Shown here piece by piece: positions 20,399-62,664 of a stretch of 64,000 nt of DNA (the stretch's first letter is position 1; each line of letters opens with the position of its first letter). The notes under the pieces were generated by a model that was not told where the DNA came from, ran no database searches, and worked only from the letters and a program-made list of their open reading frames with translations. The translations under genes and the position numbers were made by a program. The stretch comes from Candidatus Nanoarchaeia archaeon (lineage in GTDB: Archaea > Nanobdellota > Nanobdellia > Woesearchaeales > GW2011-AR9): contig DATDTM010000047.1 of NCBI GenBank assembly GCA_035290865.1, positions 14,127-78,126 on the forward strand. The letters run 5' to 3'.

Positions 20399-23300
20399 TT
20401 ATCTCTTCCCCACCATCATCACAAAAGCCAGAAAACTTTCTAATTGTAAATACTCGTCCGAACCTTCTACCATTCGGAACTCCACCTCCCCGCATTTATC
20501 TACTAATTCTACTTTCTTCCGATCCTCTAATTCTAAATTCCAGATCTCTTTCTGGATCTGCTTGATGATATCTAATCCCGATAATCCATAATCTAACATC
20601 AGATCTAACAATTTCTTTCTAGAATCTAAGAAACTTCCTTTTACTGCTAAAGCCAGTACTTCTTTAACCTCTTTGGGCTTGGCTACCGAAGCCATGGAAT
20701 AGACCAGTTCGGGAGTGATCTCTTTCTGTAGGATTGCGCAGCTCTGCAGGATATTCTCTAATCTGCGGCAGTCCCCATCGCAGACTTCAAACAAAGCTTT
20801 CTGCGCTTCTGCCCCGATCTGCAGTTTCTCTTCATTGGCAATACCTTTGATCACTTTATAGATCTCTTCTTCTGCTAAGGGCTTGAACCTGAATACTGCA
20901 CATCTGCTTTGTATAGGATCGATAATTTTCGAAGAATAGTTGCAACTTAAAATAAATCTACAGGTCTTGGTATAATTCTCCATCGTTCTTCTCAAAGCCT
21001 GCTGCGCTTCTTTGGTTAACGCATCACTTTCATCCAGATAAATTAATTTAAATGGTGCATCCCCTAATGCTTTAGTTCTGGCAAAATCTTTTACCTTCAC
21101 TCTGACGATATCTATCCCCCTCTCATCCGAGGCATTTAACTCCAGAACATTCTGCCTCCAGTTTTCACCGAACAATTGTTTGGCGATGACTAAAGACAGG
21201 GTCGTATTGTGCAAAGTAAGACCCCCTCCATGTCCACCAATGAAATTATGGGTACCTACAACATTTAAATCATAAACATAATCTCCTTTAACATTTTCCA
21301 CTGATTTAATGGTATCCCAATAAATCTCAGCCTTGGCCAAATACTCGAGCAGCTCGAGACTACTCAACAGTTCCTGAGAAAATATTCGTTCCTCTAATAT
21401 TTGTTTAACAACAATAAAAACTGAATTTAACTTGCATACCGCCTGTAGAGAAAGCCCGTCATTATTGAAGTAATAGTTTATCGATGCTGCCGATTCATCC
21501 ATTCTCCTTCCGATTTCAGCGTAAGAGATAGAGAATAGCTGGATCGCCCTAACTATATTCTGGCGTGCAACTAGTTGTTCCCGAAGATGAGAACTAAGCT
21601 CACCAGCCCCGTGAACCTGCAAGTTTTTCATTACCTTTAATATTCTTATTAAGTTGGCAAGGGTAGGTTCTCGCTTTCCCTCGTAGTATTCTTTAAGTCT
21701 ATCGTAGCGTATTCCAGATAAGGCCCCTATATGTGTACGAGAAGACGGAGCGCAGAGTTGTGAGAAAACAGCTCCTACTTCATTTTCTACGGTGGGTGGA
21801 AAGCGTTCACAAAGCGTTATGGTTTCTAATCCCGTTTTAATTCTGCTTCGGGCCAGATCGCAGATTACCTGATATAACTTTTGAACTCTAATCCTGCTCC
21901 CTTTTTCCCGCTCAAAGATATGCTCAACAAAAACCGCTTCGTTTAATTCTTTCTGCTCGATGCCCAATAATTTTATGGTCTCTCCAAGATGCTCTTTACT
22001 AATCGTCATTACATCTACATTGGTGTTGCTTGCCCGCTGGCAAACAATGGTCTTAACTCTGGGATTTACTTTCTCTTGGAATCGTAGAATCTCAGCAATC
22101 GAATTTATCGTAAGGTAATATTGTCGTTTTCTATTTTTTATATGAGGATGAATTCCCCAGCGCAGTAATAGGTAGGGTAATCCTTCAATCATTGTTTTGC
22201 TGGTACTGGAAAGCTCAATTATATTTTTATAACAGGAACCATCACATTCGAAGTATCCTCGTATAAATGCGGCCACATACTCATCTGGGGCAGTAAATAA
22301 TTCTGAAGGTACAGTAATCATGTCTGCTTTAGGTTTGTGAAGAGGAATAGAGTAAAAATGTTCCAGTAAAGCTACTAATACCCTGCATTTCATAATTTCT
22401 ATATAGGGGACTCCTTTTCGTTCTTTTTCTTGGAAACGCAGCTCAGAGCCAAATAGTAGCTTGCTCAATTCCACGAATCGTGAGCGGAGAAAATTATTGC
22501 AGTTATAAAAACGAATTGACGAAGTACGAACATGCCCATCGCCAAAAACTAAACCCAGCCATTCATAAAAATCTGGCACAGGCGTTCTAAAATGAAATAT
22601 GGTAGTTGAAGGCGAATGGAATTTTCCTTTCCATAGCAACTTCTCTACTAAAGAAAAGTCAGTAACCAAAGCGTAGGGAATAATAGTAGAATCAACTTGT
22701 TTTTTAGTTAAAGAGTATTGTCGTGGCTTTTTCAAAGAGGAAGATAGTATCTTCTCTTTTATCAATGAAGCAATTGCCCAGTTAACTACTTTATGTTTTT
22801 CTCCAATCTTAACTGAAATTTCTGCAGCCGTGGCTCCCTCTACTGGCTGGAGATACTCCAACACTTTGGATTTAACTCTAACATATAGGGGGTGGGGTGG
22901 AAGAGAGACACTTTTTTTTAACACTGCCCAAAAACAGGGGTGCTTCTCCCAGCATAGTTCCCAACGGCTAAGATGAGGACGAATTACTAAAGGTGAAGCA
23001 ACCAGATTATTTGGACGAAGCTCTTCTGCTTTAACCCAAGTGGGTACGCCTTCTTTTAATACTAAAAATGGATGTTCTGGAGTTGTAGTAACCCGTTTTC
23101 CTGCAGAAGTGCGTACACATAATAACTTTCCAGCATATTCTCGGTGAAAGTAAGCTATAGATGCAGGGGAAATCTCACCCATAGCATTAAGTGTCATAAC
23201 TTTGGTTAACTTTTCATTAAAGCAATCTTTTATTGACTTTATAGCGCCAGTATCAGTTATGATGGGAGTATCTCCCGTAACGCACTTTCCCACTCCCGCC

Positions 23301-23437
23301 GGCCCGGAAAAAAGCAGGTGAGGCATGCTTTTGGTTTCCACAAAAGCCCTAATTTTCTGGACGATCTCTTTCTGGCCTTTAACCTCATCAAAAGTTTGGG
23401 GCCGATACTTTTCAGTCCAGATAGAAGATTCAGTCAT
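20399..23437 (-). CDS. rfcS: replication factor C small subunit with one large intein in the P-loop
   Basis: N-extein WTEKYRPQTFDEVKGQ...LLFSGPAGVGK, then intein starting CVTGDTPII and ending THNFIGGHGGGLTLHN, then extein TTLSLVIAKQ...LELNASDERGID...IYLDESD...SRC (Walker A GVGK|TT, SRC motif). Exteins total ~319 aa. Confidence 0.85.
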   Translation of the reverse strand: MTESSIWTEKYRPQTFDEVKGQKEIVQKIRAFVETKSMPHLLFSGPAGVGKCVTGDTPIITDTGAIKSIKDCFNEKLTKVMTLNAMGEISPASIAYFHREYAGKLLCVRTSAGKRVTTTPEHPFLVLKEGVPTWVKAEELRPNNLVASPLVIRPHLSRWELCWEKHPCFWAVLKKSVSLPPHPLYVRVKSKVLEYLQPVEGATAAEISVKIGEKHKVVNWAIASLIKEKILSSSLKKPRQYSLTKKQVDSTIIPYALVTDFSLVEKLLWKGKFHSPSTTIFHFRTPVPDFYEWLGLVFGDGHVRTSSIRFYNCNNFLRSRFVELSKLLFGSELRFQEKERKGVPYIEIMKCRVLVALLEHFYSIPLHKPKADMITVPSELFTAPDEYVAAFIRGYFECDGSCYKNIIELSSTSKTMIEGLPYLLLRWGIHPHIKNRKRQYYLTINSIAEILRFQEKVNPRVKTIVCQRASNTNVDVMTISKEHLGETIKLLGIEQKELNEAVFVEHIFEREKGSRIRVQKLYQVICDLARSRIKTGLETITLCERFPPTVENEVGAVFSQLCAPSSRTHIGALSGIRYDRLKEYYEGKREPTLANLIRILKVMKNLQVHGAGELSSHLREQLVARQNIVRAIQLFSISYAEIGRRMDESAASINYYFNNDGLSLQAVCKLNSVFIVVKQILEERIFSQELLSSLELLEYLAKAEIYWDTIKSVENVKGDYVYDLNVVGTHNFIGGHGGGLTLHNTTLSLVIAKQLFGENWRQNVLELNASDERGIDIVRVKVKDFARTKALGDAPFKLIYLDESDALTKEAQQALRRTMENYTKTCRFILSCNYSSKIIDPIQSRCAVFRFKPLAEEEIYKVIKGIANEEKLQIGAEAQKALFEVCDGDCRRLENILQSCAILQKEITPELVYSMASVAKPKEVKEVLALAVKGSFLDSRKKLLDLMLDYGLSGLDIIKQIQKEIWNLELEDRKKVELVDKCGEVEFRMVEGSDEYLQLESFLAFVMMVGKR
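21206..23284 (-). mobile_element. intein (~693 aa) with LAGLIDADG homing-endonuclease domain inserted in the RFC Walker A motif
   Basis: N-terminal Cys after GVGK, C-terminal His-Asn followed by Thr; LAGLIDADG-like blocks LGLVFGDGHV and FIRGYFECDGS; reverse complement of 21203-21220 reads LTLHNT. Confidence 0.75.
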
Positions 23438-25582: not shown

Positions 25583-25948
25583 GGTAGTAGTGGCAGTTAG
25601 CTGAGGGTATTTATTGCCCAGGAAAGTCCGCCCACCAAAAACAGGCCACTCCTAGGAAGGAGAGGGAGAAATTCCCTGGCTCTGGCTTCAGAAACGACAC
25701 GTCCTGCAGAATGGGATGATATGGCGAAGTTCCTTGCGAAAGGAATGAGTTAACCTATGGACGTCTCTGCAGGGAACGATGAAACGGCGAACCCCTTGTT
25801 GAGATGTAAATTTCAAAGGGCTCTTAGAGATAATAGCCCTGCCGGTGCAAGTGCAGTTCTGCACGCTCAGTCGAATGCTAACCTAAGCCATCGCAGTCAC
25901 AGGTTGACTGTTTGGGCTTAACCAAAGGCGGCTTATGTCACTCTACCC
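25583..25948 (+). ncRNA. rnpB: RNase P RNA, archaeal type (candidate)
   Basis: ORF-free 550-bp gap containing the universal P4 motif cAGGAAAGUCCGccc near the 5' end and acAGgttgactgtttGGGCUUAacc near the 3' end (compare E. coli ACAGAAcCCGGCUUA); ends ggtag(t)agtggca at 25583 and tgtcactctacc at 25936 can form P1; followed by a T8 run. Confidence 0.55.
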
Positions 25949-30835: not shown

Positions 30836-33298
30836 ATGTCCACTACTCAAAAACAAATCTTCACTAAAAAAGAATCTCTAGGCATTTTTGGCAAGGACCC
30901 GCAGGAAAGAACCACCGAAGAATTAATCAATTATGGAATCGTTAATATTGATAAGCCTAAAGGCCCCACTTCCCACCAAGTAAGCGCTTATCTCCAGAAA
31001 ATTCTAGGGATAGAAAAAGCCGGCCATTCCGGAACTTTGGATCCCGGAGTTACCGGAGTCCAGCCTATTGCTCTAGGCAAAGCTACCAGAATTACCGAAT
31101 TTTTTCTTACTGCCCCTAAAGAATATATTGCTTTAATGCACCTGCACCGAGATTTCGAAGAGGAAAAAATAAAAGAAACTTTCCAAAAGCTTATCGGAAA
31201 AATATCCCAGCTTCCTCCGCTTAAATCCGCAGTAAAAAGGCAATTAAGGACCAGAGAGATTTACGAAACAGAAATTTTAGAGATTAAAGGTAGGGACATC
31301 TTATTCAGAATACGCTGCCAGGCAGGAACTTATATCAGAAAATTCTGTTTACATCCTCAAACAAATATTTTAACTAATAAAGGCTCTTTAAGTGCTTCGG
31401 ATTTTTTTTCTGATCATCCAAATGTATATTCATACCATTTAGGCAAGATGATTGAAAAAAAACCTTCCGCAACTCAAAAAATCTTTTCTCCTAAAAAACT
31501 AATTAAAATTACCCTCTCTTCCGGAATAAGCTTTATGGTTACTCCAGATCATGAAATGTTAACTTCACAAAAAGAAGGTTGTAAAATGATAGATGCGAAG
31601 ACACTTAGAAAAGGAGATTTTCTCGTTAAAAGCCTCTTTTTTCCTAGCATCTCAAAAGAGTATGTAATTGCAGACTTGTTGGACGATAATTATCTAATCC
31701 AACAAGAAGAGATTAAAGAACAGTGTAAACAAGCATTTATCTCCAAATATGGAAGTATTCGGGCAATGTATCGTAATCTAAAACTAGATAGAAAAGCATT
31801 CTTAGCCAAAGCAAGTTCTGCCATAACGATTCGGCACTTAAAACTAGCGGGAATATATGAAAAAGTTAAGAAGAATATTCACATTTTTAAAACGCACAAA
31901 GGTAACCTTATTGAGATGAAAGAATTTAAAGAAGACTTTTTCTATCTATTGGGTTTAATTGCTTCTGATGGAAACAACACCAAAGAGAAAAGAACAGATC
32001 GTTATACTAGAATAAAATTTCATAACAACGAGGAAAGATTGATTGATAATTTTTTAGGTGCATATCAAAAAATATTTCCTTCCATCCCTATATCTAAAAA
32101 AAAAGTAACAGATAAGCTGTGGCAGTTGGATTCATCAAATAGTTTCTTAGCCACCATAGCCGCTTCATTAGGTATTAAGAGTCCCCAGAAAGAATCCTCG
32201 TTGTCACCGATTATAAACTTAAAAGATAATTTTATCAAATCTTTTTTACGCGGGTATTTTGATGGAGACGGCTCAATATATCATAAAAAGACTACTACCA
32301 ATGATAAGAGCAAAATTTGTATCCATACCATCAACCATACTGATGCAACAAATCTACATAAAATGTTATTAAAGGTAGGAATTCAAAATAAAATATTTAA
32401 AAGAAAGCATCATTCTAATATCATTAAAAAAACAAGTACAATATACGATGTAACAATCGGGAATATTCCCGCAGAGAAAAAATTTATCATCGAAATTGGA
32501 ACAACCCATCCTAAAAAAGCTGAAAAATTTAAAGAGGTATTAAGCTTAAATTATCAAGCTGAACCCGAGGATTATCTTTATATTGGTTTTCATTACAAAG
32601 AAGAGATTAGAAAAAATAGATCAAAACTGCACCAAATGGGCGGAAACCTTTTTCGAGTTCTAAATACCAACACACCGATTACTCGAGCATTCTATAGAAA
32701 AGCTTCAAAGATAGTAAACTTGCCTCAGTTAGACGAATTTGTCATAGAAAAAATTAAATCTGTAGAAAAAGTATCCAAATGTGAATTTGTGTATGACCTT
32801 ACTGTTCCTGAAACCCACAATTTTCTTATCGAAACCGGTTTTGTCTCTTCTAACTGCCATGATTTCGGCTTGGCTTTAGATACTGGAGCGCATATGATAG
32901 AACTAAGAAGGATCATGGCTGGGCCCATGACTGAAAAAGATAATCTGGTTAGCTTAAACGATTTGAGTGATGCCTATCATTTCTATAAAGAAGAAAATAA
33001 TGATAAATTCTTGCGTTATTGCATCCAGCCGATAGAGGAAGCTCTGAAATTCATGCCTAAATGCTGGGTTTTAGATAATAGCATCCAAAGCTTGACTCAT
33101 GGAAGGGATTTAGCCATTCCCGGAATCAGTAAATTAGAGAACTTTCCTAAAGGCAGTTTAGTTGCTATTCTTACCCTAAAAGGAGAGTTAATCGCGGTAG
33201 GGGAAGCTTTGATGTCTGCAGTAGAGATTAATACCCAGCAGAACGGCCTGGCTCTGAAATTAAAAAAAGTGTTCATGGAAGCGATAGAATCAATATAG
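30836..33298 (+). CDS. cbf5: H/ACA RNP pseudouridine synthase Cbf5 (TruB family, PUA domain) interrupted by an intein
   Basis: N-extein ...GHSGTLDPGVTG...CQAGTYIRKF, then intein CLHPQT...GFVSSN, then extein CHDFGLALDTGAHMIELRRIMAGPM (Cbf5 consensus AGTYIRSLCHDIG...GAHM.ELRR); C-terminal PUA domain. Exteins total ~317 aa. Confidence 0.85.
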   Translation: MSTTQKQIFTKKESLGIFGKDPQERTTEELINYGIVNIDKPKGPTSHQVSAYLQKILGIEKAGHSGTLDPGVTGVQPIALGKATRITEFFLTAPKEYIALMHLHRDFEEEKIKETFQKLIGKISQLPPLKSAVKRQLRTREIYETEILEIKGRDILFRIRCQAGTYIRKFCLHPQTNILTNKGSLSASDFFSDHPNVYSYHLGKMIEKKPSATQKIFSPKKLIKITLSSGISFMVTPDHEMLTSQKEGCKMIDAKTLRKGDFLVKSLFFPSISKEYVIADLLDDNYLIQQEEIKEQCKQAFISKYGSIRAMYRNLKLDRKAFLAKASSAITIRHLKLAGIYEKVKKNIHIFKTHKGNLIEMKEFKEDFFYLLGLIASDGNNTKEKRTDRYTRIKFHNNEERLIDNFLGAYQKIFPSIPISKKKVTDKLWQLDSSNSFLATIAASLGIKSPQKESSLSPIINLKDNFIKSFLRGYFDGDGSIYHKKTTTNDKSKICIHTINHTDATNLHKMLLKVGIQNKIFKRKHHSNIIKKTSTIYDVTIGNIPAEKKFIIEIGTTHPKKAEKFKEVLSLNYQAEPEDYLYIGFHYKEEIRKNRSKLHQMGGNLFRVLNTNTPITRAFYRKASKIVNLPQLDEFVIEKIKSVEKVSKCEFVYDLTVPETHNFLIETGFVSSNCHDFGLALDTGAHMIELRRIMAGPMTEKDNLVSLNDLSDAYHFYKEENNDKFLRYCIQPIEEALKFMPKCWVLDNSIQSLTHGRDLAIPGISKLENFPKGSLVAILTLKGELIAVGEALMSAVEINTQQNGLALKLKKVFMEAIESI
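31346..32854 (+). mobile_element. intein (~503 aa) with LAGLIDADG homing endonuclease inside the Cbf5 catalytic region
   Basis: Begins with Cys (tgt at 31346), ends ...SSN (aac at 32852-32854) followed by Cys; blocks FYLLGLIASDGNN and FLRGYFDGDGSIY; ETHNFLIETGF terminal block. Confidence 0.75.
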
Positions 33299-43482: not shown

Positions 43483-44439
43483 TTAAACCTCTTTCAACAC
43501 TTCCCTTGCCTCTTTTCCCTCAAACAAAATCTCATAGAGACCATTAATCAAAGGCAATTTTAAATTAAACTTTTCTTGGAGATGAATCGCCTCTTTCAGG
43601 TTAGTCACTCCCTCTGCCACCATTTTCATCTCTGCCAAAACATCAGACAATTTCCTGCCCTTGCCTACTTCTTCTCCTACATGCCTGTTTCTAGAATGTT
43701 TACTGGTACAAGTTACAATCAGATCTCCCAATCCGGCTAAGCCATAAAAAGTTTCTTTTTTAGCTCCCCAGGCTAAACCTACCTCTTTAATCTCTTCCAG
43801 CCCTTTAGTCATGATATAGGCCTTGGCATTATCTCCCTGATTTAATCCCTCTAGAAGACCAATAAATACCGCAAAGACATTCTTTAAAGCCGCAGCTACC
43901 TGCATTCCTACTATATCTTTACTTAATTCTACTTTAAAATTCTCGCTTTCCAGAACTTTTTTAATTTTCTGTTTTCCTTTTCCTCCAGCTAGAACAATCC
44001 CGGTTAATTTTCCTTTTCCAACCTCTTCAGCATGGGTTGGTCCGTATAAACAATAGACTTTCTCTTTCATTTCAGGCTTAACTTTTTCTTGCACTACTTC
44101 GCTCAATAGCCTAGAATTAGAGGCAAAACCTTTCGAACAGATTATTAGTGATTGGCTTTCCAGGAACTTAACTGCTTGACTAATGGTGACTTCCACCTTA
44201 TCTGAAGGCACCACTATGAAAACTAATTTAGAATCAGGAAGAACTTCTTCCATTTTCGAGGAAACAAAAATATTGTCTGACAATCTAACTTCAGGCAATA
44301 AAGGGCAGACTCTTTCATGCTTCATCTTTCGGGCCTGCTCTTCAAAGAATTCCCAGATTTTGACCTGATGCTTATTCTTGGCTAATTGTGCCGCTAGAGC
44401 CGTGCCCCAGCTTCCTCCGCCCAGGATGGATATTTTCAT
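43483..44439 (-). CDS. gpsA: NAD(P)H-dependent glycerol-3-phosphate dehydrogenase
   Basis: MKISILGGGSWGTALAAQL Rossmann motif, ~318 aa; conserved LAGLGDLIVTC-type segment (GpsA consensus G.GDL..TC). Confidence 0.75.
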   Translation of the reverse strand: MKISILGGGSWGTALAAQLAKNKHQVKIWEFFEEQARKMKHERVCPLLPEVRLSDNIFVSSKMEEVLPDSKLVFIVVPSDKVEVTISQAVKFLESQSLIICSKGFASNSRLLSEVVQEKVKPEMKEKVYCLYGPTHAEEVGKGKLTGIVLAGGKGKQKIKKVLESENFKVELSKDIVGMQVAAALKNVFAVFIGLLEGLNQGDNAKAYIMTKGLEEIKEVGLAWGAKKETFYGLAGLGDLIVTCTSKHSRNRHVGEEVGKGRKLSDVLAEMKMVAEGVTNLKEAIHLQEKFNLKLPLINGLYEILFEGKEAREVLKEV

Positions 44440-44795
44440 TTGGCCTCTTTAGAGAAAACCTCTTCTATTTGTTTTTGTAAGATTATTAATTTATGCTCTA
44501 AAATATCCCATAATATCTCTAGGTCTAACTGATGATACTTATGAATAACCACGTTTCTAAAATCTTTAATTTCCTGCCAAGGGATGTTCTTATACTTATT
44601 CTTCATCTCTAGAGGTAATTGAGCAATTGCTTCCCCAATTATCTCTAAGTTACGGACGGTTGCATCAATAGTGATTCTGCTCTGTTTAAAATCTTCAAAA
44701 TCCATCTCTTGGATATATTCCTGTATCACTTCAATACTATCCAAGATGTCCTTAAGAAAAAAACTAGATTTGCGCGGCAATTTGTTTTCCCTCAA
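44436..44795 (-). CDS. HepT/HEPN (DUF86) toxin of a HepT-MNT toxin-antitoxin pair
   Basis: RNVVIHKYHQLD carries the Rx4HxY HEPN motif; 4-nt overlap with gpsA and 32-nt overlap with the upstream MNT gene. Confidence 0.7.
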   Translation of the reverse strand: MRENKLPRKSSFFLKDILDSIEVIQEYIQEMDFEDFKQSRITIDATVRNLEIIGEAIAQLPLEMKNKYKNIPWQEIKDFRNVVIHKYHQLDLEILWDILEHKLIILQKQIEEVFSKEAK

Positions 44796-45066
44796 GAATT
44801 TCTGATTTTAATTCTTCCCGAATTAGATTCGGTTTAATTAGGTCTATCTCTTTCTTAAAAATATTCTTCAAGAACAATTTTAAATGGACATAATCATCAT
44901 ACAGCCCCCGGCCAGGCATAAATTCTACTAAAAAGTCTAAATCGCTTTCTTTTTTAGCTCTATCTTGGGCATAAGAGCCAAAAAGAATGATCTTTTTAAC
45001 TCCATAGGACTTAATCTCCCTCTTATGTGCTTCCAATAGGGATATAATTTTTTCTTTGGTTAGCAT
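44764..45066 (-). CDS. MNT-type minimal nucleotidyltransferase antitoxin
   Basis: ILFGSYAQDRAKKESDLDFLVEF matches the GS....(x)n...DhD nucleotidyltransferase motif. Confidence 0.75.
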   Translation of the reverse strand: MLTKEKIISLLEAHKREIKSYGVKKIILFGSYAQDRAKKESDLDFLVEFMPGRGLYDDYVHLKLFLKNIFKKEIDLIKPNLIREELKSEILEGKQIAAQI

Positions 45067-54300: not shown

Positions 54301-54384
54301 TTGAGAATCATTTTCCAAAGCAAGGACTAAAGTTAAAAATAGTAAAAACGATCCAAAAATAATAATTCTTTTTTTCTCTATCAA
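48343..54384 (-). CDS. giant (2013 aa) cell-surface protein with Gly-rich, Ig-like, CARDB and FN3-like modules
   Basis: Signal peptide; GGNGGNG/GGKGGNGG glycine-rich block; three CARDB-like repeats (LTLTSSDIHYDQ...PANNFIVELLID, LTLFSNDIHLFP...GVNNFTLELFVD, LTLDASDIIQTP...DANNFVVRFTV); FN3-like PPLAPVLSSSPNNW...HYEYRIDAGSW. Confidence 0.7.
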   Translation of the reverse strand: MIEKKRIIIFGSFLLFLTLVLALENDSQTVNNTLGIPVESEELSTNLTPIENQLEENVTQSVNGSIQTPTGAIINLPLGLPINEAEPIYESTSISTALTLIIDKLTAIVGEIINIQAFLKDNNQTPIPDQKIDFYADEYLGSDITDIGGKAEINWDTFSRIPGFYTIIANYSGDEVISPNSVNLEIKINQKPIDKTPLKYKFKVKDENGELIGFSLYSKDELEDEPENVVYNLTIIPEDNPEIKIEFKNIRLNENEELGLSYPKIDSFEDLEFKDVYAVNPENLEFDSVRITSIAEGETLYKCKEWDFSNSQCLGTWQELMNLTIGEEYSFVLTKEDPGFAEGNKQKNISFAHLNFNAVQLSGKEIIYRNSADLSQYLKIETDQEYYHCLQNCIIRINITNTLFNLGETDFNISLDNSKRYSFKERNIKDTLDLTVNKSELLDYSLEDIPIGAEEFKFNVTLNLLGYTFVLDPTAISGCVEVEGNIINCNGTLSGNYIDTNNASIWVHDTIINGQGSPGLIRLNTTYGWINITNATLNGYGNQGSQGSDFEETCPSDGTHYGDNGGNGYEGKIELYIKNNLKIDNSVLNSYGGKGGNGGHAYQTGGSCVNTGTVIGGNGGIGGRGTIYLYGNKSSSIIIINSTSLNYYGGNGGNGGASDSNDAGWNCQGGNGVNAEKSHSIFTATEVKTKNITTFNGDKGNGGSSGGCNSCGGSCLGGGNEGSASISEHLWNVSNSISFDDVLYSGLSPAYNFHKFALTGNENRLGIFNNSDIEDKVYVFCSASEITIGNDTTLDTNLNFTYCPAYQNDNISYVDYDNFFITFGYPTSIDEDTGNDGTIDYQYAGTLDESNSPQEVDLNITAINDYLAICTPDQNNNCLVPLNFTTSSKGIIHLSDIIVDFSVSDNISPKIHNLIIIPNPANVSSNLTVKVNATDNINLTKVNATFSTQSITLTYNQISGWYEGVLIAPSSPGEYTLYVMASDWVNLTATNSTSGATESTGGLSIHSEDPDLTLTSSDIHYDQKVLYENQLLIFNATVYNKGDQPANNFIVELLIDDISDQSKTLSIANQSNSSTQFNWTTTYGNHSITIKTDASNIISEANELNNEASINISILDVTPPIIGEILHGSVEGTPSTIKVNIADNVNISVVTATISNTTLVLDYNSTSALYENTFTAPNAGIYELIITAKDINGLATTKKISLEIYSTIPDLTLFSNDIHLFPLPLTDGTLTNLSVIVHNDGGTGVNNFTLELFVDSILYQNKSLNILSDASNTAYFLWPAYYGQHLLTLRVDPLGNITESDENNNELNLSVLVKDKTTSQINEIIIVDTSYVNANLSLKVNVTDNLNVSTVNATVNNVLILLTYNSSSDLYEGFTTAPAAPGFYQINVTATDVSDLKDNRQQPITINPAEADLTLDASDIIQTPLNPAEPEVLGVNIIIRNEGGTDANNFVVRFTVNSNVQEQNLSVTKSSTNSTYFSWNSTYSNHTITINADYYNIIIESNESNNIYTKSIFVGDVIPPLAPVLSSSPNNWSTQNIHTISWNPVEDTNGINHYEYRIDAGSWNNIGLNTSFITLPQTEGVHTIYVRAVDNPGNLGHSGNVSLYIDTSNPGTPIIKELHSGDNWTQHNSPYYTWTNPGDIGSGVVSYVGELDGNLFSLGNSQSYHVNVTSGSHTFRIYAQDALQHNSTWSNPVNIYIDSDAPSMITITSPTHPNNNDWYNLSVPIFNFSATDIHSSIYGYYYVVNNNESTTPDIMNLWTMDSLINITGIGGTVSQNNQSQNAIGLTDGFWYLHSLAKDKVGNLGNTTHFVFKIDTLAPEIVNITPANNTIVGNNTPTIVINYYDSYSGVNTSSVILQLDGDVVAPFINTTTTTYTPAIPLTGGEHDLSIQIKDLAKESNFIIYNWTFKISANESEARTAIEQGAADSILIAYQTYTSQQLYVRYLNNTQKSGRFDKVIISGNQTWVFNFLTGSDAYTNIVGLHNNVLVIWENQTLTPDEISKQVETLINQTKW

Positions 54385-57300
54385 TTTTGAACTCCGTATC
54401 CTGAAATATTCAATTTAGCATTAGTAACATTAGCTGTTTTCGGTAATTTAATATAGACCACTTGGCTGCCTGCACCGGCATAAGTAAGATTTTTAATGTA
54501 TGAACCATCTGAAAGCGTAGTAAAGGTTAAACTTCCTGGACCGACAACCGGTATAATTACATTAGCGGTAGAACTTACATTATGGCTATCTGTAGCCTTT
54601 AAAGTAATTTTGTGAAAACCAGAAGAAAGATTGTTTAAAGTAAAAGCGTTCCCGGTCCCGATTACCCCATCACGGTCAGAAATCCAGACTAAAGAATTTC
54701 CGGAAAGATTACCATCTTCATAATCTTGAGCAGTGCCTTCAAAAGTAATGTTCCAGCCTAAAGAATAGACTGAGCCAGGAACTGGAGAAACGATGGTAAC
54801 ATTCGGCGGAGCAGAGATTACAGTTACATTTACAGAGACATTAGCACTTTGGTTATCATTATCTACTGCTGCTAAAATAATTTGATAAGATCCAACTGTA
54901 AAATTAGACCGATTAAATTCTGTCCCCGAACCTAAATTACCATTTAAAGAAGATTTCCAGGACAGAGAATTTCCGACTAAAGAACCGGTTTCAGGATCAG
55001 TTGCTATGCCCTTAAAAGTGAAGAGAACTCCATTAATTATCTGTTGATTATTTGTAGGAGAGATTATCGATACTATCGGTGGTTGAGGCTCTAAAACCAC
55101 AAATTGAGTCTGGTCGAGCCCAGTAAGGCCATAACTATCCATTACTGAAGCAGTAATCAAGTGTGCACCCTGAGATAAGGCTTTAATAAAAGATAAGCCA
55201 GTTCCAAGATACCCATCAAGACTGGAAGTCCAGTTTAATTTTGAAGATAAATCTCCATCATGCGGGTCGGTGGCAGTTCCATTAAAAGTGATGCTGTTTT
55301 CGGTATAATAAAAGGTGGCATTATTTTCTGGTAAAGTAATATTAATTATAGGAGTAGATTCTTCAATAATAATGCTTAGAACACTAACTGCACTTACCTG
55401 GCTAAAGTCGGTGGCATTTAAAGTGAGGTTATGTACCCCAACACTTAAAGAGTTAGTAAAAATGGTTCCGCCGCTACCTAAATAACCGTCGATACTTGAA
55501 GTCCAAATAAGAGCGTTACCCATTATGTTCCCATCTTCAGGGTCTAAAGCTTTACCATCCAAATAAACTGTTGCTCCTTCCGGGAAAGCCTGGCTGTTAG
55601 AGGGAGAATTTATGGTTATTACTGGTGGTTGTGAAGCCAGAACCAAAATAATTACCTGATCAACGTCTTTATTTCCATCAGAATCTTCCACAGTTAAATA
55701 AATAACCTGATCTCCCAAACTAAGGTTAGCATAGATTAAAGAGCCGCTACCAAGATAACCATCTTTACTGGAAGTCCATTCATACAAAGATTCATTTAAA
55801 GATTCATCTTTATAATCCGTGCCATACCCTGTAAGAATAGTTGGCAGATTGACATAAGCTGGTGCCCCGTTAGGTGGAGCGACAATCGAAGTAGTAGGCT
55901 TAGGATTAACCACATTTACTAACTCGTTGATTTGGTTGTTAAGTTCGTTTAGTTCACTGGTAACATCAGTGTAATCAACCTCAACACTAATATTACGTAT
56001 CCCAATAACGGAAAAGTTAGTTAAGATGCTGATTAAAGCAGTTTCGTTGCTGGCAAGATTAGTTATTTCCTTTTCCCCGATCAAATACTGGGCAGTATAA
56101 TCATTGGGAGAAGTATAACTCTCCATATATTTTAATTTAAAATTACTGGCATTAGCCGGCCCCTCATTTCTAACTGCAACTGTAATATTTAGAATTTCAT
56201 TAGCATCCGGGGTTAGGGAAGAAAAGCCTAAGGCAAGAGGAACTAAATCCGGTTTATTGGGGTTTTTTAAAGTGGCAAAGTAAACTGAATTATTTTCTGC
56301 GGCATAAGAATAAAGAGTGGCATTTTCTATCAATTCTGCAGTATGATTGCCTAATTCTCCTTCCACTTCCGGGTTAACCTTAGTTAATTCCACACCGCCA
56401 TAAACTGTATAATCCCACCAATTCCAGCCATTATTATAATACTGGAAAGAGTACAAATATTGCCAGGCTTTGGTTTCATAATAGCTTTGATCAAAGTTTT
56501 TGTAAAGGCCGGAGAGATTGTTAGAATCAATTAGCTTATTGTAAATTATATTTTCTCCCGGCTGCTTTTTATACCATTGAGCTAGGGCAATAGAAGCGTG
56601 GGCTCTTCGCAAGGCTTCATATTTTGGGTCAACATTAACTTTTATTTCAGCTTCAGCCGCAATCTCAGCTAAGCCCGCTTCAAGGTCAGCTTTGAATTGC
56701 GCTAATTCAGCCTGGTAGCCGCCGCCATTTACCCAGACTGCGTCCACTACAGAATTAACTTTTAGGGTGGAATTAGTGATAAATATTTTGCACCCGGTTC
56801 CATTTGCAGTTACGGAATCTGAACTGATCCAGACCCGGGCATAGAAACCAGGCCATTTGCTGGGATCGCCAACAACATTCTCTTCCCAGTTGTTAACCAA
56901 ACTTTCAACTAAATTCTGGCTTTGGCCAAAATGATCCATTTTGAGTTGGACGTCGGCATCAAACATAATCTGGCCTAATTCCGTGTGGGATAAGTTACCA
57001 TCAACTTTAGAAACATCACCCACTTTTCCTGCGAAACCCGGGCCAGGCTTAGTATCCATGGTCACCCACATTTTGTGATTAGGGACAATTAAGCTGGTTA
57101 AGAAAGCGTTAGTAGCTTGGACGGTAGCGTTAGTGATATTGATCAGAACATCAGTTGTGTTAGCTTCTTTTCCTTTCATCACGGCGACAAAACCTTCTTG
57201 AGGATCGCAGGTAGAGATATAGTTGAGATTAGCGGAAGTGAAGTTGATGCCGCCGGTTTTTTCTGCAACGTCTTCAGGGGAAGTGTCTATAAAATTTGTA

Positions 57301-58334
57301 GTAAGATCAAAACCACCATACTTTCCAGAGACTGAACTGGCATAAACTTCTAGAGTCCAATTACCTGCTTGCATTTGTGGTTTATTTATCGTCAAACTTT
57401 TAGTGTAGGAAGTGCTCAAATCAGAAGCAACAACAGTACCGCTGGGGTTGAGCACTCTTAATTGTAAGTAAGATAATGAAAAGAAAGGGTCAACCTTGAA
57501 TCCTTCTTCTTGCCCGTTAAGTGTAAGGTAGAATTTCCAGGTCTGACCGTTAGCAATTCGGGCGGAAAGAGATTCTCCTATTTGAATACTCTGGGCAAGG
57601 AAAATGTTGTCGTAGTAATAATCGAACATCCACTCCCAGACTTTCCCTGTTAGCGCCCAGTATTGGGTGCCCCATTGAGTCATATAAGTTCCATCACCTT
57701 TTGATTTATTTGCTACCTGACCAGCTATATATGCAGCATTGAGAATATTTTCAGTTCCTGTCCCGTTGTAAACTGCATAGTAATCCCAAGTATAGTCTAC
57801 TGCTTGATTTCCGTCGTTGGTGTTAGAATTATTTTTATACATTTGGTCGCAGGTGAAGTCAACGACATGGGCGCCGGTTTCTTTCCACTTTTTTGTATTT
57901 TCAGTTTCATATATTTTAATAGTATACCACGGAGCTAATTTTGTTGCCATTGCACCTGCTCTAAGACTTTCTGTTGGCCATAAGATAGAAATCGCTGGTG
58001 CCCATTCATTTGGAAGAACATCTTTAACATAAGTTTTGAAGTTCAGTGTTTGTTTTGAAAAACCAGGTGTTCCATCAATAATTCTATTTTTAATGTAAAT
58101 ATCCAAACCTAATTGAGAACCATTACCATAATTGTTAACTAAACTAGGGCAATCTGCTTTTTCTGCATTAGTAAAACCGGTAATTGCTACAGTTATGTTT
58201 ATGGGGAATTGTTCGATATTAGCATGAGCAAATTTAATCATGAGAGATAGAACTACAACAAAAAAAATTGTTCTAAACCAACGTCTCTTCAAATAGATCA
58301 TATATTTCCTCTTTTTAGGGGAGCCTTGTACCAA
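54381..58334 (-). CDS. large (1317 aa) surface protein: N-terminal SpoIID/LytB-like domain, CARDB domain, five ~90-aa Ig-like repeats
   Basis: [32 protein letters not shown] parallels the SpoIID/LytB consensus [34 protein letters not shown] parallels TTHCQVY; repeats PPVITINSP...DPEDGN...[12 protein letters not shown] five times; [14 protein letters not shown] (CARDB). Confidence 0.65.
   Translation of the reverse strand: [1317 protein letters not shown]
57059..57270. repeat. ~210-bp near-identical dispersed direct repeat, copy 1 (inside the 1317-aa gene)
   Basis: gtcacccacattttgtgattaggga[c/t]aattaagctggttaagaaagcgttagt...gaagtgaagttgatgccgccgg occurs at both loci. Confidence 0.8.
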
Positions 58335-59028
58335 TCCTTATAATATATCTCTTATTCACAATTTTTTTTAAGCCATTTTTTGTGATAAATCCAGTTATCC
58401 CCATTTTTCCACTTGCTTCAACTTTAATATCATTTGCTAGTTCTAATTGTACTTCTTTTGTATTCTTTTCAAAATTCTCCCATTCTTCAATTCTAAAATG
58501 AATAAACACCGGGACAAATTCCTCTTTCTCTACCCTTTCCCATAATTGATCTTCAATCAGAGGACCGACAAGTATTCCCATTTTTTCTCTTTTCTCATCT
58601 AAAACAATTTGGTCTTCTATCATAAAACCCAACTCTTGTTGACTCTGTTGAAAATCTGGTGCTTGTGCAATAACTATCTCTTTCAGAACTTCCATCTTAT
58701 ACTCTTTCTCCGAAACCCCTTCATTCACTTCTCCCGGTAAGTCCTTCGCTTTACTCTTATTAATCATTCCAAAGATTACATTTCCATAAGTTTTACTTTG
58801 CTCGGTATCGTTAATTACTAGACCTTTCGCTTTCAATTTCTCCAGAGTTTCATTAGTAATAGAATCTACTTTAACCGCAACCGAGATGATTTCACCGGTT
58901 TTAATTTCCTGCGGAATTTCTTTCACTGCACAGCCGGCGAGAAATAATATGCTAAGCAATAGAACAAATATAATACACCTTGCTTTTTTCATCTGTTCAC
59001 TCATTTTATTTTTGAATACTTCTGACAT
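58315..59028 (-). CDS. lipoprotein-like protein B1 (classic LAGC lipobox), partner of the SpoIID-like cassette
   Basis: ILFLAGCAV; paralogous to the 59765-60472 product (KGLVINDTEQSK / KGLIVSYETSEN, ...PVFIHFRIEEWENF / PAYIKFRMEYWGDN). Confidence 0.5.
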   Translation of the reverse strand: MSEVFKNKMSEQMKKARCIIFVLLLSILFLAGCAVKEIPQEIKTGEIISVAVKVDSITNETLEKLKAKGLVINDTEQSKTYGNVIFGMINKSKAKDLPGEVNEGVSEKEYKMEVLKEIVIAQAPDFQQSQQELGFMIEDQIVLDEKREKMGILVGPLIEDQLWERVEKEEFVPVFIHFRIEEWENFEKNTKEVQLELANDIKVEASGKMGITGFITKNGLKKIVNKRYIIRIGTRLP

Positions 59029-59796
59029 TTATAAAACCTCTTTTCTATCAATAACATAGAACTTCCATGTTTGCCCTTTGGCAATCTTAGCAGAGACGGC
59101 ATCACCAATCACCATATTCTTCGCAAGAAAAGAATTGTTATAGTAATAGTTGAGGATATATTCCCAAGGCTTGCCGGATTGAACGAGATATTGAGAGCCC
59201 CATTGGCTCATTTGCAGCCCAGGATATTCTACGATTTCTTTTTTCCAGATACCGTCTGTGCCTTGGTAATGTAAGGCTTCGAGGACTTTTTCTGTTCCGC
59301 TGTAATTCTTTTCAGCGTAGTAAGACCAAGTGTCATCGACAGATTGGTTCGTTTTTAGTTGAGTGGTTTCGTCGTACATTTGGTCGCAGGTGAAGTCTAC
59401 TACATCGGCACCGATTAATGACCACTTTTGTGGTTCATCTACTCTATACCAACCATATAATTTAACTGCCATCGCACCTGAACGAAGGCTTTCTTGATTC
59501 CAAGTAGTATTCCATTCGTTATCCAATACCCTTTGAGTATATAATTTCAAAGGAACAGTATCGACAGTAACAGTATGATTTTTGATATATTGTTCCAAAC
59601 CATCTCCGTGAGTAGCTTCAAGTTTGGGACAATCTGTCTTTTCATCCCAAGAAAGATTTGTGATAGCTACTTTTATACTGTCTGGAAAAGTTAACAAATT
59701 TGCAGAAACATCTATGGATAAAAATAACACAATTCCTACCACTAGTACAGCTATAGCTCCTTGCTTAATTATTACAAGTTTTGGTTCCATTTTCAA
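59029..59796 (-). CDS. stand-alone secreted SpoIID/LytB-like domain protein (paralog of the N-terminus of the 1317-aa protein)
   Basis: [44 protein letters not shown] and YYYNNSFLA are all shared with the 54381-58334 product; nucleotide similarity to 57560-57900. Confidence 0.55.
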   Translation of the reverse strand: [255 protein letters not shown]

Positions 59797-60472
59797 ATAC
59801 AGTGCAATGAGGTATACTCAAGTCTCTCCAGCCAATATCTAATATACATTCAACATTTCTTAGTTTATTAACTCCTTCTTGAGTTATCTCTCCTTTAAGA
59901 GCCCCTCTCTCATCCTCTTCTAATTTAAAATCTGCTTTACTTAACCGTGAATTTATTTCATCAAGACAGATTTTACTATTATCACCCCAGTACTCCATTC
60001 TAAATTTTATATACGCTGGAGCGTACTCTTTATCTTTTAATTCTTCTAACAATTTTTTTCTTATATAAGGTCCAACAGTAATATTCTCTTTAGCTCTAGC
60101 CTCATCAATAATATTCTGCATATCTTTGTCCGTTAACTGCTGGCTTTCTTTCTTCTTCACCACTTTAATCTGAGAATTATTTTGTAATTTACCAAACTCC
60201 GTTTTATTAATCTCGCCGGTCAAAACTAAGTTTTCACTTGTTTCGTAAGAAACTATCAATCCTTTCTGTTTCAAATCTTCAATAACGCTGGCAGAAACAT
60301 TCTTATCAACAATAACATTAACTTTTATCTTATCTGGACTTACGGATGGTTCTACCGGAACTTCTTCTTTAGCACATCCAATAATAATTAGAATCAATAG
60401 TACTAATAATATCCCAATAAACAAACTTTTTTTTCTCATCCTACACCCCCCTTCTTTCACTTTAGTAAACAT
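59765..60472 (-). CDS. lipoprotein-like protein B2 (IIGC lipobox), paralog of B1
   Basis: See B1; follows the stand-alone SpoIID-like gene in the same order as in the first module. Confidence 0.5.
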   Translation of the reverse strand: MFTKVKEGGCRMRKKSLFIGILLVLLILIIIGCAKEEVPVEPSVSPDKIKVNVIVDKNVSASVIEDLKQKGLIVSYETSENLVLTGEINKTEFGKLQNNSQIKVVKKKESQQLTDKDMQNIIDEARAKENITVGPYIRKKLLEELKDKEYAPAYIKFRMEYWGDNSKICLDEINSRLSKADFKLEEDERGALKGEITQEGVNKLRNVECILDIGWRDLSIPHCTVFENGTKTCNN

Positions 60473-60479
60473 TCAATCT

Positions 60480-60704
60480 TTATAAAGCCTCTTTACCACT
60501 TAAAGATATGCTTTTGATAATTGGATTCTCTCGCACAAAAGTAATCAACAAAACATCTCCGCACGGCGATTCAAAAACCATGGTCACCCACATTTTGTGA
60601 TTAGGGATAATTAAGCTGGTTAAGAAAGCGTTAGTGGCTTGGACGGTAGCGTTAGTGATATTGATCAGAACATCAGTTGTGTTAGCTTCTTTTCCTTTCA
60701 TCAC
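60480..60704 (-). pseudogene. truncated duplicate of an internal segment of the 1317-aa surface protein gene
   Basis: [30 protein letters not shown](I/V)PNHKMWVTM is identical in both; the DNA at 60580-60790 matches 57059-57270 with about 3 mismatches. Confidence 0.5.
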
Positions 60705-60790
60705 GGCGACAAAACCTTCTTGAGGGTCGCAGGTAGAGATATAGTTGAGATTAGCGGAAGTGAAGTTGATGCCGCCGGGAGCGGCTGCTG
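60580..60790. repeat. ~210-bp near-identical dispersed direct repeat, copy 2 (gene fragment)
   Basis: As copy 1; divergence begins exactly at the repeat borders. Confidence 0.8.
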
Positions 60791-60879
60791 GGTTACTAGC
60801 ATCTGATGCTTTCGGAGTTATTCCCAGCTTGAAATCAGCGAAATCTTTTTCAATTTTCTTTCCGGTGACATTAATCTTT

Positions 60880-62664
60880 CTAGCTCACTACCTCATTAAA
60901 ATTTATCTCCACGCTCTTACTGATCAGATAATCATAATCTAAACTGGCCAGGAAAGTTTTCGGCACCCAATCTTTAGTATTTTTCAATTCCACAGGATAA
61001 TCTTTCACCTGACATTGGGGCCTGGAAATTATTTTCTTATACCCGGAAGCATCGATATTGGTCTCGTAGAGACATTGAGAATTATCTACTACAAAACCAG
61101 GCAGCTCAATCTGAAATCGTTTTACTAATAAAATCTTTCCCATCCCCACATTTTCAATATTGGAGATTAAACTTAAAGTTTTAAAGGGCTTGTTTTCGAT
61201 TATGGAATCTTTCTGTACATGCCCTAGATCAAAATTGATCTTAGCAAATTCTTTGGGCGCTCTGGATTCTTTGATCGTAACGATCTTATTTATTTCCGGC
61301 ATTAAAGCTTTTTTCTCTTCAGGAGTTTTATCTCCGATAAACGCTCTCTGTAACAAAGACTGGGTATTCAAATCTAATAATTTTGCAGAAAATTCTAGAT
61401 TATAACTAGCATTAAGCACTTTTCCTTCCGGAGGATAGCATAAGAAAGTATTGCCTAATTCTTCTTCTTTAAATTCAATTGCTGGAGAGGTGCTTGGCTC
61501 AATCCTGCCTAAGAAACTCTCTTTAGAAATCTTATCCGTAAAATTACAATACATCTCCGCTTTAATCACTAATTTTCTAGGATTCTTTATTTTCAGCTCT
61601 ACCGGAAAGGGCAGATTCGCAGCATAAAATTGGGGGAAATAATCTTTGTTTATGACTAATTCTGCGCTGGTAGGAATTTTGATAGTAGGATCAATCACTC
61701 CTCCCACCATTAAAGAAACTTCTTCTTTCTCTTTTTTCTTTTCAGCAATGCATGTTTCAAATTCCGGTGTACCCTCTTTCTTTTTCTCCATTTCAGTACA
61801 GCTATAACTCAATTCAGAATATGCTTGTTTCTCTTCTACACAGCCCTCAATATTAGTATATTCTCCTTCTATTAAACATTTTAAGTTCGACCAGGCAGGA
61901 TTTTCTTTTTGGGGCAATTGTTCTCTTAATCTCGCCTGAGCTTCCTCAAATTCTGTTGCGCTGGGCAATAAAGATTGGTCATAGCCTAGATTAGGAATGC
62001 TCGGAGCTACGAAAACAAAGATCAAGTACATTATTCCCACTATTCGAGTTAAATTTATAGCCACATTAGCGAACTTGCTCTCGCTGGCCTCTGCAGGTAA
62101 AGTTAATAAGCCAAAGAAAGCCCACCAGGGCATGAATAGGACTAAACTTTCCATCAGCGGAGTAATAGGCAGGCTTAAATTTTCCGCTAAGAAAGCAATT
62201 AACCCAATATCTAAAAAAAAGAAAATTACTGGAATAAAACCTAACAATTCTGGTTTAAGGCTCTGTCCTTTGGAAAAGACTCCAAAAATAAGTGAAATAA
62301 TTAATATTCCAGCTCCGAAATAAAGCAGGAATTCTGGGTCATAATTTCCTCCAAATAAAAAGTACCAGATTACGAATATTAACATCGGAATTAATATTGC
62401 GCTACGATTCTTTTCAGTTTTCTGGGCTAGAGCATATCCCGCTAAGATAAACAAAGTCAAAGAGAAAACAAAAGTGATTGCCGATGCTCCTCCCGTAGTC
62501 AAACGCAAAATAAAATGGATTACTCCTAGAACCACCATCATCCAACTCAAGTTTTTGGCTGCTCCGCTCACTGCTCCTGCCGCTTCGCTGGCGCCAGCAG
62601 ACTTTGCTGCTGCTCCTACCTCTCCAGAAGCTGCAACTTTCGCTGCCTCACCAAAAAGTGTCAT
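60880..62664 (-). CDS. polytopic membrane protein (~8 TM) with large C-terminal extracellular domain, hypothetical
   Basis: Ala/Gly-rich N-terminus, 7-8 hydrophobic helices, then ~330-aa Cys-containing soluble domain. Confidence 0.5.
   Translation of the reverse strand: MTLFGEAAKVAASGEVGAAAKSAGASEAAGAVSGAAKNLSWMMVVLGVIHFILRLTTGGASAITFVFSLTLFILAGYALAQKTEKNRSAILIPMLIFVIWYFLFGGNYDPEFLLYFGAGILIISLIFGVFSKGQSLKPELLGFIPVIFFFLDIGLIAFLAENLSLPITPLMESLVLFMPWWAFFGLLTLPAEASESKFANVAINLTRIVGIMYLIFVFVAPSIPNLGYDQSLLPSATEFEEAQARLREQLPQKENPAWSNLKCLIEGEYTNIEGCVEEKQAYSELSYSCTEMEKKKEGTPEFETCIAEKKKEKEEVSLMVGGVIDPTIKIPTSAELVINKDYFPQFYAANLPFPVELKIKNPRKLVIKAEMYCNFTDKISKESFLGRIEPSTSPAIEFKEEELGNTFLCYPPEGKVLNASYNLEFSAKLLDLNTQSLLQRAFIGDKTPEEKKALMPEINKIVTIKESRAPKEFAKINFDLGHVQKDSIIENKPFKTLSLISNIENVGMGKILLVKRFQIELPGFVVDNSQCLYETNIDASGYKKIISRPQCQVKDYPVELKNTKDWVPKTFLASLDYDYLISKSVEINFNEVVS

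Follow-up and report, generated by a model that had tools for sequence, protein, structure and literature searches.

Surface-protein gene and orphaned 3' end of a short paralog as probable partners of a recent gene conversion in a DPANN archaeon

The subject of this report is a 64,000-nt stretch of DNA (hereafter, the window; contig DATDTM010000047.1 of assembly GCA_035290865.1, positions 14,127 to 78,126 of the forward strand) from a DPANN archaeon; the same proteins are found in a metagenome-assembled genome (MAG) at NCBI named Candidatus Nanoarchaeia archaeon. A locus of surface-protein genes in the window contains one direct repeat of 201 nt, of which one copy (copy A) lies within the gene for a surface protein of 1317 amino acids (aa) and the other (copy B) in the gap between two other genes. 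From sequence comparison, we consider it probable that copy B is what is left of a short paralog (S-type) of the long surface-protein gene, namely its orphaned 3' end, made up of the repeated segment (the core), a private tail of 32 codons and a stop codon, and that recent ectopic gene conversion took place between this fragment and the 1317-aa gene. Gene conversion is an ordinary and well-known process; the setting, a tandem and highly mosaic family of DPANN surface proteins, is new.

Results

The repeat pair

The repeat was delimited by a repeat search and by direct alignment. Copy A spans positions 57056-57256 of the window and copy B positions 60578-60778 (spacing, 3522 nt); both are read on the minus strand. 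An earlier note on this DNA had placed a repeat of about 210 bp at 57059-57270 and 60580-60790; the repeat itself is confirmed, but the upper edge given there overshoots by 12-14 nt. The same note had counted about 3 differing positions, which was accurate: there are exactly three mismatches in 201 nt (198 identical bases, 98.5%), all of them transitions. In the coding (minus-strand) orientation, they fall at repeat positions 53, 143 and 171, where copy A has T, T and G and copy B has C, C and A; two are synonymous and one is a Val-to-Ile change. The longest exact stretch shared by the two copies is 89 nt. Both edges are sharp, the ungapped identity over 100 nt on the two sides (37% and 27%) being at the random level. 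A 47-nt piece of the repeat had 2 matches in the window versus 0.00 expected (100 shuffles). No third copy was found in the 64-kb window, where the A/B pair is the sole long near-identical repeat. The sequence of copy B is identical in the contigs L001-L005, L009-L011 and L013.

The core (GGINFTS...KMWVTM) corresponds, as copy A, to codons ~360-426 of the 1317-aa gene, in which it is the first conserved segment past a hypervariable linker. As copy B, it stands in the gap between the gene of a 594-aa membrane protein and that of a 235-aa lipoprotein-like protein.

Diversity-generating retroelements (DGRs) have been reported in DPANN archaea, and a pair of ~200-nt repeats, one of them within a surface-protein gene, is superficially like the template and variable repeats of such an element. 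The probability of this origin is nevertheless negligible in our estimate: no reverse transcriptase gene was present among the open reading frames (ORFs) of the window scanned with Pfam, the differences (T/C, T/C and G/A) are not adenine-specific on either strand, and the copy within the gene is not at the 3' end of that gene and has no C-type-lectin-like fold. A mobile element (a miniature inverted-repeat transposable element or a fragment of an insertion sequence) was considered and rejected; there are no inverted repeats, two copies only and no match to a viral contig, and the segment is an integral, conserved part of homologous proteins. A structured or regulatory RNA was rejected as well, since the predicted fold of the repeat was no better than those of shuffled sequences (z = -0.95) and the Rfam scan of the window gave no match in the repeat, the only match being RNase P RNA elsewhere.

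Assembly checks

Both copies, each with its own flanks and its own diagnostic bases, are present in contigs of 17-165 kb from ERZ27254763, ERZ27254767, ERZ27254752, JGI 3300002502 and the NCBI MAG. The contigs from these five samples were made with different assemblers and are 100% identical to the window over the shared 11-20 kb. Because the longest exact shared stretch is 89 nt, assemblies with k = 141 resolve the two copies; at this length, no k-mer is common to A and B. The Logan contigs L006 and L012 each end exactly 30 nt into the repeat and L008 begins inside it, as expected of a true repeat. A false second copy made by a collapsed or chimeric contig, a possibility that the earlier note had itself raised, or by the mixing of strains would fit the short contigs that break or switch inside the repeat (L006, L008, L012, L014, L022 and L023). 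We regard such an artefact as scarcely credible in view of the five concordant long contigs, the lack of a shared 141-mer and the presence of homologous B-type fragments in other lineages.

Copy B and its tail

Copy B is laid out as core, tail and stop codon, followed by a promoter-like box and the start of the lipoprotein gene; it has no head and no usable start codon. The tail (60480-60577, minus strand) consists of 32 codons, VFESPCGDVLLITFVRENPIIKSISLSGKEAL, and the stop codon, and has no nucleotide similarity to the sequence 3' of copy A. The gene finder called a 74-aa ORF here (60480-60704, minus strand), which is composed of the last 42 codons of the core and the tail; the NCBI annotation has it as HLD73185.1 (73 aa, hypothetical protein), which is most likely a gene fragment. 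According to the earlier note, this ORF exactly reproduces an internal piece of the 1317-aa protein. This is correct for the first 42 residues, apart from the one Val-to-Ile change, but not for the last 32, which are without detectable counterpart.

The frame of copy B is open for 130 codons, from 2 nt ahead of the 594-aa gene's stop codon. No ATG, GTG or TTG is present in the 56 codons of this frame that precede the GTG at 60704, the earliest start codon. The open extension upstream of the core (60779-60884, minus strand; ARKINVTGKKIEKDFADFKLGITPKASDASNPAAAP) may be a remnant of the end of a sandwich domain and the linker, which is not provable; about 33 codons would be open by chance with a probability of roughly 10% at the local base composition (our own estimate). 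As a homolog of the sandwich and linker, this flank showed a likeness by eye only (DFKLG versus EFKLTT): BLASTP against P0039, a homolog with these parts, gave no alignment, tblastn only extended out of the core, and the homology was left unproven. A programmed +1 frameshift from the 594-aa gene into the frame of copy B was also considered; the frames fit, but the slippery context is absent, and the idea was dropped.

A TATA-box-like element, GCTTTATAAAG (60478-60488, minus strand), overlaps the stop codon of the tail and lies ~40 nt upstream of the ATG at 60439. This box is invariant in the window, L020, L021, L025, L027 and L028, and it is likely to be the TATA element of the lipoprotein gene promoter. 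The copy B fragment itself would appear to have no promoter, and a scan of the copy B gap for bacterial-type promoters and terminators gave nothing above shuffles.

A degenerate pattern for the 3' end of the core was scanned against metagenome contigs. Three homologs of the long gene continue as ...WVTMDTKPG, like copy A; L020 continues as ...WVTM and then VFESPCGDVLLVTFVRENPIMKSIFLSDKEAL and a stop codon, that is, with the B tail, after which a lipoprotein gene follows. Further sequences with the B tail were obtained by protein searches and by a profile scan of GTDB genomes. The junction of core and tail (KMWVTM-VFES...EAL-stop) is common to L020, L021/P0039, L027/P0069, L025 and L028. In L021/P0039 it belongs to a 211-aa ORF with a beta-sandwich, the linker, the core and the B tail, which has a 237-like gene before it and a 235-like gene after it (the L021 gene is broken by a deletion and a frameshift), and in L027/P0069 two sandwich domains precede the core and the B tail. 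L025 (a Nanoarchaeota MAG of GTDB) is a short relic with stop codons just upstream and a frameshift inside. The core and tail of L028 are 99.7% identical to those of window copy B, the upstream flank being different; in L020, the start region of the 74-aa ORF (VMKGKE) is deleted.

An exhaustive profile search of 1.84 billion cluster representatives gave ~100 proteins that carry the core. Only 4 of them have the B tail: P0039 and P0069, plus P0001 and P0038 of this organism. The pattern scan of the GTDB genome collection gave no match; the profile scan of the same collection gave only L024, L025 and L026, and among the genomes recovered none combined an S-type with a long gene. Few matches came from a second and a third word-indexed protein search.

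Age of the junction and of the core

Synonymous and nonsynonymous divergence (dS and dN) of the 32 tail codons was estimated by the Nei-Gojobori method. The tail dS of the window was 0.45 versus L020, 1.15 versus L021 and 1.42 versus L025, and the tail dN/dS was 0.12-0.39 in all six pairs. Judged by these values, the junction of core and tail is old, and the tail has evolved in the manner of coding sequence. The cores of A and B have a dS of 0.047 and a dN of 0.007, so that the gap between core and tail divergence is ten-fold or larger; by this measure, the identity of the cores is recent at an old junction. The comparison of copy B with its counterpart in L020 points the same way: the tails are 88.9% identical but the cores 75.2% (Fisher p = 0.008), and across the family the core is the better conserved protein segment of the two. 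A core that appears younger than its junction and that matches a neighbouring paralog bears the signature of ectopic gene conversion, and a recent event of this kind between the 1317-aa gene and the orphan fragment is the reading that we favour as probable. Ongoing gene conversion had been named among the explanations in the earlier note, and that suggestion, as ongoing or recent conversion, is supported by the core, which is much closer to that of the neighbour gene (98.5%) than to that of L020, the B-type copy with the closest tail.

Under this reading, the cores of the fragment and of the 1317-aa gene would have been exchanged recently by non-reciprocal homologous recombination, the underlying process being presumably recombinational repair templated by the paralog. 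The converted tract would fill the entire alignable stretch of the two loci (201 nt) and would end on each side where alignability ends; for that reason, sharp borders would be expected without any special site. The three differences would be point mutations that arose after the last exchange. This holds at least for the Val codon (G) in copy A, which is derived, every homolog having the A (Ile) state at position 171.

A very recent duplication of a gene fragment had been the first suggestion of the earlier note. Within one genome, the near-identity, the sharp borders and the unrelated flanks do look like an insertion, as if a 201-bp piece of the 1317-aa gene had been copied and pasted into an intergenic region. 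This history is, however, contradicted, because the core stood at the tail junction long before the present identity: the in-frame tail with the same junction occurs in at least five other sequences, at a tail dS of 0.45-1.4 as against 0.047 for the core, and the borders are the limits of family-wide homology and not arbitrary points. We therefore hold it to be improbable.

It could also be supposed that copy B is a free-standing small gene (73-74 aa, HLD73185.1) whose protein is under selection that keeps it identical to copy A. In several assemblies it is predicted by gene callers, and the dN/dS of the tail is below 1. Selection on the protein does not, however, hold synonymous sites, and the core dS is 0.047 versus 0.45 or more in the tail; L020 has lost the candidate start (VMKGKE) through a deletion, and in L025 the frame is disrupted; the product has no signal peptide and no family match; and in P0039 and P0069 the same core and tail form the C-terminus of longer proteins with sandwich domains. 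A small gene of its own is thus very improbable.

As for the direction of the conversion, copying from the long gene into the fragment is the more likely one. In a partitioned comparison, the middle and 3' parts of the window core are 72-77% identical to L015, a long-gene core, versus 57-65% to L021 and L027, and as a whole the window core is closer to the cores of long genes than to those of L021, L027 and L025. This grouping of the window core with the cores of long genes favours the 1317-aa gene as source and the fragment as recipient, which is not a proof. It also speaks against a further suggestion of the earlier note, that copy B serves as a silent donor from which an exposed domain is varied; the cassette is single, it differs at three positions, and the suggestion, as it was put, is not supported.

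Several points weigh against recent conversion of an orphaned fragment. Concerted evolution is shown for one genome only. The direction of copying is unproven, and the 'B-type' signatures of cores elsewhere could be specific to lineages and not to copies. The identity reaches both edges of the homology and leaves no residual old-B nucleotides, which fits repeated homogenisation better than a single conversion of diverged cores; an older and larger duplication followed by replacement of the flanks could also give identity from edge to edge. Finally, the tail is under purifying selection though the fragment is headless, and to see in copy B a dead relic requires that the truncation was recent.

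Mosaicism of the gene family

The core of L020 is itself a mosaic. Its 5' third is 90% identical to L021 and L027, and its 3' part is closest to the long-gene core of L015 (79%, versus 62-66% to L021 and L027). By this comparison, the B-type core seems to have been partly replaced up to the tail junction more than once. At the other end, a boundary recurs at the 5' edge of the core (GGINF, right behind the linker, which is rich in Pro, Ser and Gly): from the first GGINF nucleotide on, the identity of L021 and L027 is 94%, the two being unalignable upstream, and the match of L028 with window copy B starts 3 nt before the repeat, the sequence upstream being different. Both borders of the repeat coincide with the limits of family-wide homology.

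Orphan core fragments that begin at the GGINF edge adjoin unrelated genes in the window, L025, L029/P0070 and P0040. In L029 (160-882; P0070), the core fragment is in frame with a purE-like ORF (k141 contig, two samples). In P0040, it is in frame with a C-terminus like that of methylmalonyl-CoA mutase, with the same linker/GGINF border as in copy B.

Mosaic structure is also seen in the lipoprotein genes. P0047 and the gene in L027 have a common signal peptide as far as GCAKEEV and then follow the 235 and 237 types, respectively. The B tail, the GCTTTATAAAG box and the lipoprotein start with its signal peptide travel together, including in L021, L027 and L028. Sandwich, linker, core and stalk are common to the long proteins, but the heads in front vary among homologs, being SpoIID-like in the window, zinc phospholipase-C-like in P0002, P0003 and P0071, and a subtilase in P0007 and L024. 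The trio of lipoprotein, long protein and ~2000-aa CARDB protein recurs in L024 (7720-19137; from a MAG with the label Methanosarcinales). It may be that the heads have the lipoproteins before them as partners or inhibitors; for these lipoproteins, only a weak match of the Fervidolysin prodomain kind (E = 0.2) was seen.

Some short contigs depart from the arrangement of the window. L022/P0043 (JGI 3300009031) and L014/P0001 (SPAdes), both of 1.5 kb, contain the 5' region of the 1317-aa gene, a core with the pattern C-T-G, the B tail and the start of the 235-aa gene, and L023 has the flanks of B on both sides of a core with all three A-type bases. These three are from low-k or low-coverage assemblies, in which bubble-popping can create such states. 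L022 and L023 may be products of recombination or conversion, or mis-paths of an assembler at the 201-nt repeat, which would look the same. L014/P0001 was rejected as proof of recombination; it is a four-piece chimera at 1.5x coverage, which in one place joins unrelated DNA and in another switches by way of 23 identical nt. L015 (2250-2403) has a perfect 77-nt tandem duplication, whose end coincides exactly with the core's 3' border and which, by a frameshift, divides a homolog of the long gene. We did not take this as biology: because 77 is a standard k of assemblers, the duplication is probably an unmerged overlap at a graph branch, and such a branch would imply a second copy of the core in that organism too.

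These contigs bear on another explanation, in which the headless core and tail are kept in reserve as a 3' module. If cores A and B recombined unequally and the 3.5-kb interval was duplicated, the head, sandwich and core of the 1317-aa protein would be joined to the short B tail, which would give a short form of ~437 aa while the long gene is kept. Copy B has what this would take, namely a stretch of homology as anchor, a different C-terminal end and a small gene next to it, and the fragment lacks a start codon. L022/P0043 and L014/P0001 carry exactly the predicted junction with the same C-T-G pattern, and L021 has the order 237-like gene, 1317-like N-terminus with sandwich, core and B tail, and 235-like gene. 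Also in its favour are the tail, which is under purifying selection in spite of disrupted upstream parts in the window, L025 and L021, and the core fragments with the same 5' limit beside unrelated genes. On the other hand, the junction contigs are only 1.5 kb long, L014 is the assembler chimera mentioned above, and a repeat of 201 nt is too long for short k-mers or most short reads to span. The 32-residue tail is without recognisable domain, and the cassette is single; the orphan is placed upstream of the main gene and not behind it; the genes of the locus that were scanned did not include a recombinase; and the recombinant-type gene of L021 is itself broken. On balance, we think this explanation rather unlikely.

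In its wider form, for which we see a similarly low probability, the core would be the standing recombination anchor of a modular family of DPANN surface proteins, in which varied heads (SpoIID-like, phospholipase-C-like and subtilase) are set on a common stalk and orphans are deployed to switch between long and short forms. A reserve module of this kind would explain the selection on the tail, the recurrent orphans with the same border and the contigs that join A-upstream sequence, core and B tail. If true, it would be an archaeal counterpart of the deployment of orphan Rhs/CdiA modules.

The surface-protein locus

The genes of the locus are all on the minus strand. In the order of transcription, they encode the 594-aa membrane protein, copy B (in a 400-nt gap), the 235-aa, 255-aa, 237-aa and 1317-aa proteins, a 2013-aa CARDB protein and a NosD-like protein. 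The 594-aa gene (60880-62664) encodes a multi-pass membrane protein, and its stop codon abuts the orphan fragment. Directly 3' of copy B lies the gene of the 235-aa lipoprotein-like protein (59765-60472), a paralog of the 237-aa gene; its true start is probably at 60439, with which the NCBI call of 224 aa is consistent. The 255-aa gene (59029-59796) encodes a SpoIID-like, 'head-only' paralog of the N-terminus of the 1317-aa protein, and it ends where the sandwich domain would start. The 237-aa lipoprotein-like gene is at 58315-59028 and the 1317-aa gene at 54381-58334. The 1317-aa protein (CARDB domain-containing protein in the NCBI annotation) has a signal peptide, a SpoIID-like head, a beta-sandwich, the linker, the core, a conserved domain of no recognised fold, and CARDB and immunoglobulin-like (Ig-like) repeats.

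The N-terminal SpoIID-like head of the 1317-aa protein and the 255-aa protein share 44% identity, and the two lipoprotein-like proteins (235 and 237 aa) share 32%; because of these identities, the locus is taken, from sequence, as an old tandem duplication of a unit of lipoprotein and surface-protein genes. The paralogous DNA around the repeat, including a 58-nt match of 83% identity (57838-57895 and 59375-59432), is accordingly as diverged as the earlier note had said. On the scaffold L007 (a sister sample), the 255-aa gene has a ~28-nt deletion (window 59467-59494) and a stretch near the start of the 237-aa gene (58675-58689) is replaced; the array of paralogs therefore varies between samples in other ways too.

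The conserved domain that begins with the core (residues 271-700 of the 1317-aa protein, window 56235-57524) has no relative by sequence in Pfam, NCBIfam or the PDB. In an AlphaFold2 model of these residues (predicted local distance difference test, pLDDT, 72), the core forms a beta-beta-alpha-beta arrangement at the N-terminal edge of a larger alpha/beta domain. The model also has a 37-residue helix, after which come a long beta hairpin and further long helices. Foldseek with the model against the PDB gave no match below E = 0.01; the low-probability rows include MakE-type toxins of Vibrio (probability 0.21 or less).

Other features of the window

The ~20-kb block of surface-protein genes is bracketed by two MNT/HepT toxin-antitoxin pairs, as there is one at each end: one pair at 44436-45066 (minus strand), at one end of the block, and a second just beyond the other end of the window (L001, 80-897). 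Two genes have an intein with a LAGLIDADG endonuclease domain, that of the replication factor C (RFC) small subunit (1012 aa, 20399-23437, minus strand), for which intein-free cluster members of ~320 aa exist, and that of the Cbf5/TruB-PUA pseudouridine synthase (820 aa, 30836-33298, plus strand). An archaeal RNase P RNA lies at 25583-25947 (plus strand, 123 bits) and is the sole Rfam match in the window. A 300-nt tandem repeat of 84% identity (12371-12670 and 12680-12979) is contained in the gene of a 562-aa protein with He_PIG and Big_9 Ig-like domains.

Discussion

DPANN archaea are thought to live attached to other cells. Large surface proteins are in this respect obvious candidates for contact with the host, and the diversification of such genes in DPANN is little documented; DGRs are the better-known route to surface-protein variation in these archaea. 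The present locus indicates that homologous recombination acts on DPANN surface genes as well, in the form of conversion between tandem paralogs and of mosaic alleles with breakpoints at one conserved segment. The 201-bp repeat with its three diagnostic bases has been sampled many times from one aquifer and is thus a target for recombination tests at the level of reads.

Comparison with known systems

In the pilE/pilS system of Neisseria, vlsE of Borrelia and msp2 of Anaplasma, there are many diverse silent cassettes, the variable segment lies between conserved flanks, and sequence is transferred from silent to expressed copies. The present locus is similar in having a truncated copy of unexpressed type (no start codon and apparently no promoter) near a surface-protein gene, and in the proposed non-reciprocal exchange. 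It differs in that there is one cassette, which is different by 3 nt and 1 amino acid, that the homology is confined to a conserved segment, and that the direction, although uncertain, leans from expressed to silent.

The orphan cdiA-CT/cdiI modules of contact-dependent inhibition (CDI) systems and the rhs-CT/rhsI modules can be fused to the main gene by homologous recombination with duplication (PMC4927057). Like them, copy B is a 3' fragment that appears to be promoterless; it opens with homology to the main gene, runs on into another C-terminus and has a small gene behind it. In contrast to those modules, the tail here has 32 aa and no toxin domain of Pfam or NCBIfam, and the lipoprotein downstream has no match to an immunity family. 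CDI and Rhs orphans lie downstream of the main gene, whereas copy B lies 3.5 kb upstream of the 1317-aa gene, and the variable business end in this family appears to be the N-terminal head and not the C-terminus.

With gene conversion and concerted evolution of prokaryotic paralogs in general, the locus shares a discrete near-identical tract, synonymous sites included, between diverged flanks, and a core in copy B that resembles its genomic neighbour (98.5%) more than its positional counterpart in L020 (75.2%). It is unlike the usual case in that one of the partners is an orphan fragment without a head and not an intact gene, homology is lost completely at either end of the tract, and the contrast within versus between genomes comes from one genome only.

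The closest described situation, by analogy, is the lpl cluster of tandem lipoprotein genes in Staphylococcus aureus, in which a conserved internal segment of the paralogs is the site of recombination and the 3' region, the intergenic stretch and the 5' region that comes next form one evolving unit (Tsuru and Kobayashi 2008, PMC2568036). Unlike the lpl cluster, the present locus is from a DPANN archaeon and is known from metagenome contigs and not complete genomes, and large multidomain surface proteins alternate with lipoprotein genes in it. In common with lpl, there are tandem paralogs (the 235/255 and 237/1317 units and the orphan) with a segment that is highly conserved at the nucleotide level, here in two units, and whose sides are shuffled. 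The unit corresponding to that of lpl would here consist of the B tail, the TATA-like box and the lipoprotein signal peptide, and incongruence on the two sides of the segment is seen, qualitatively and on short contigs, in L021 and L027, in L028 and the window, and in L020.

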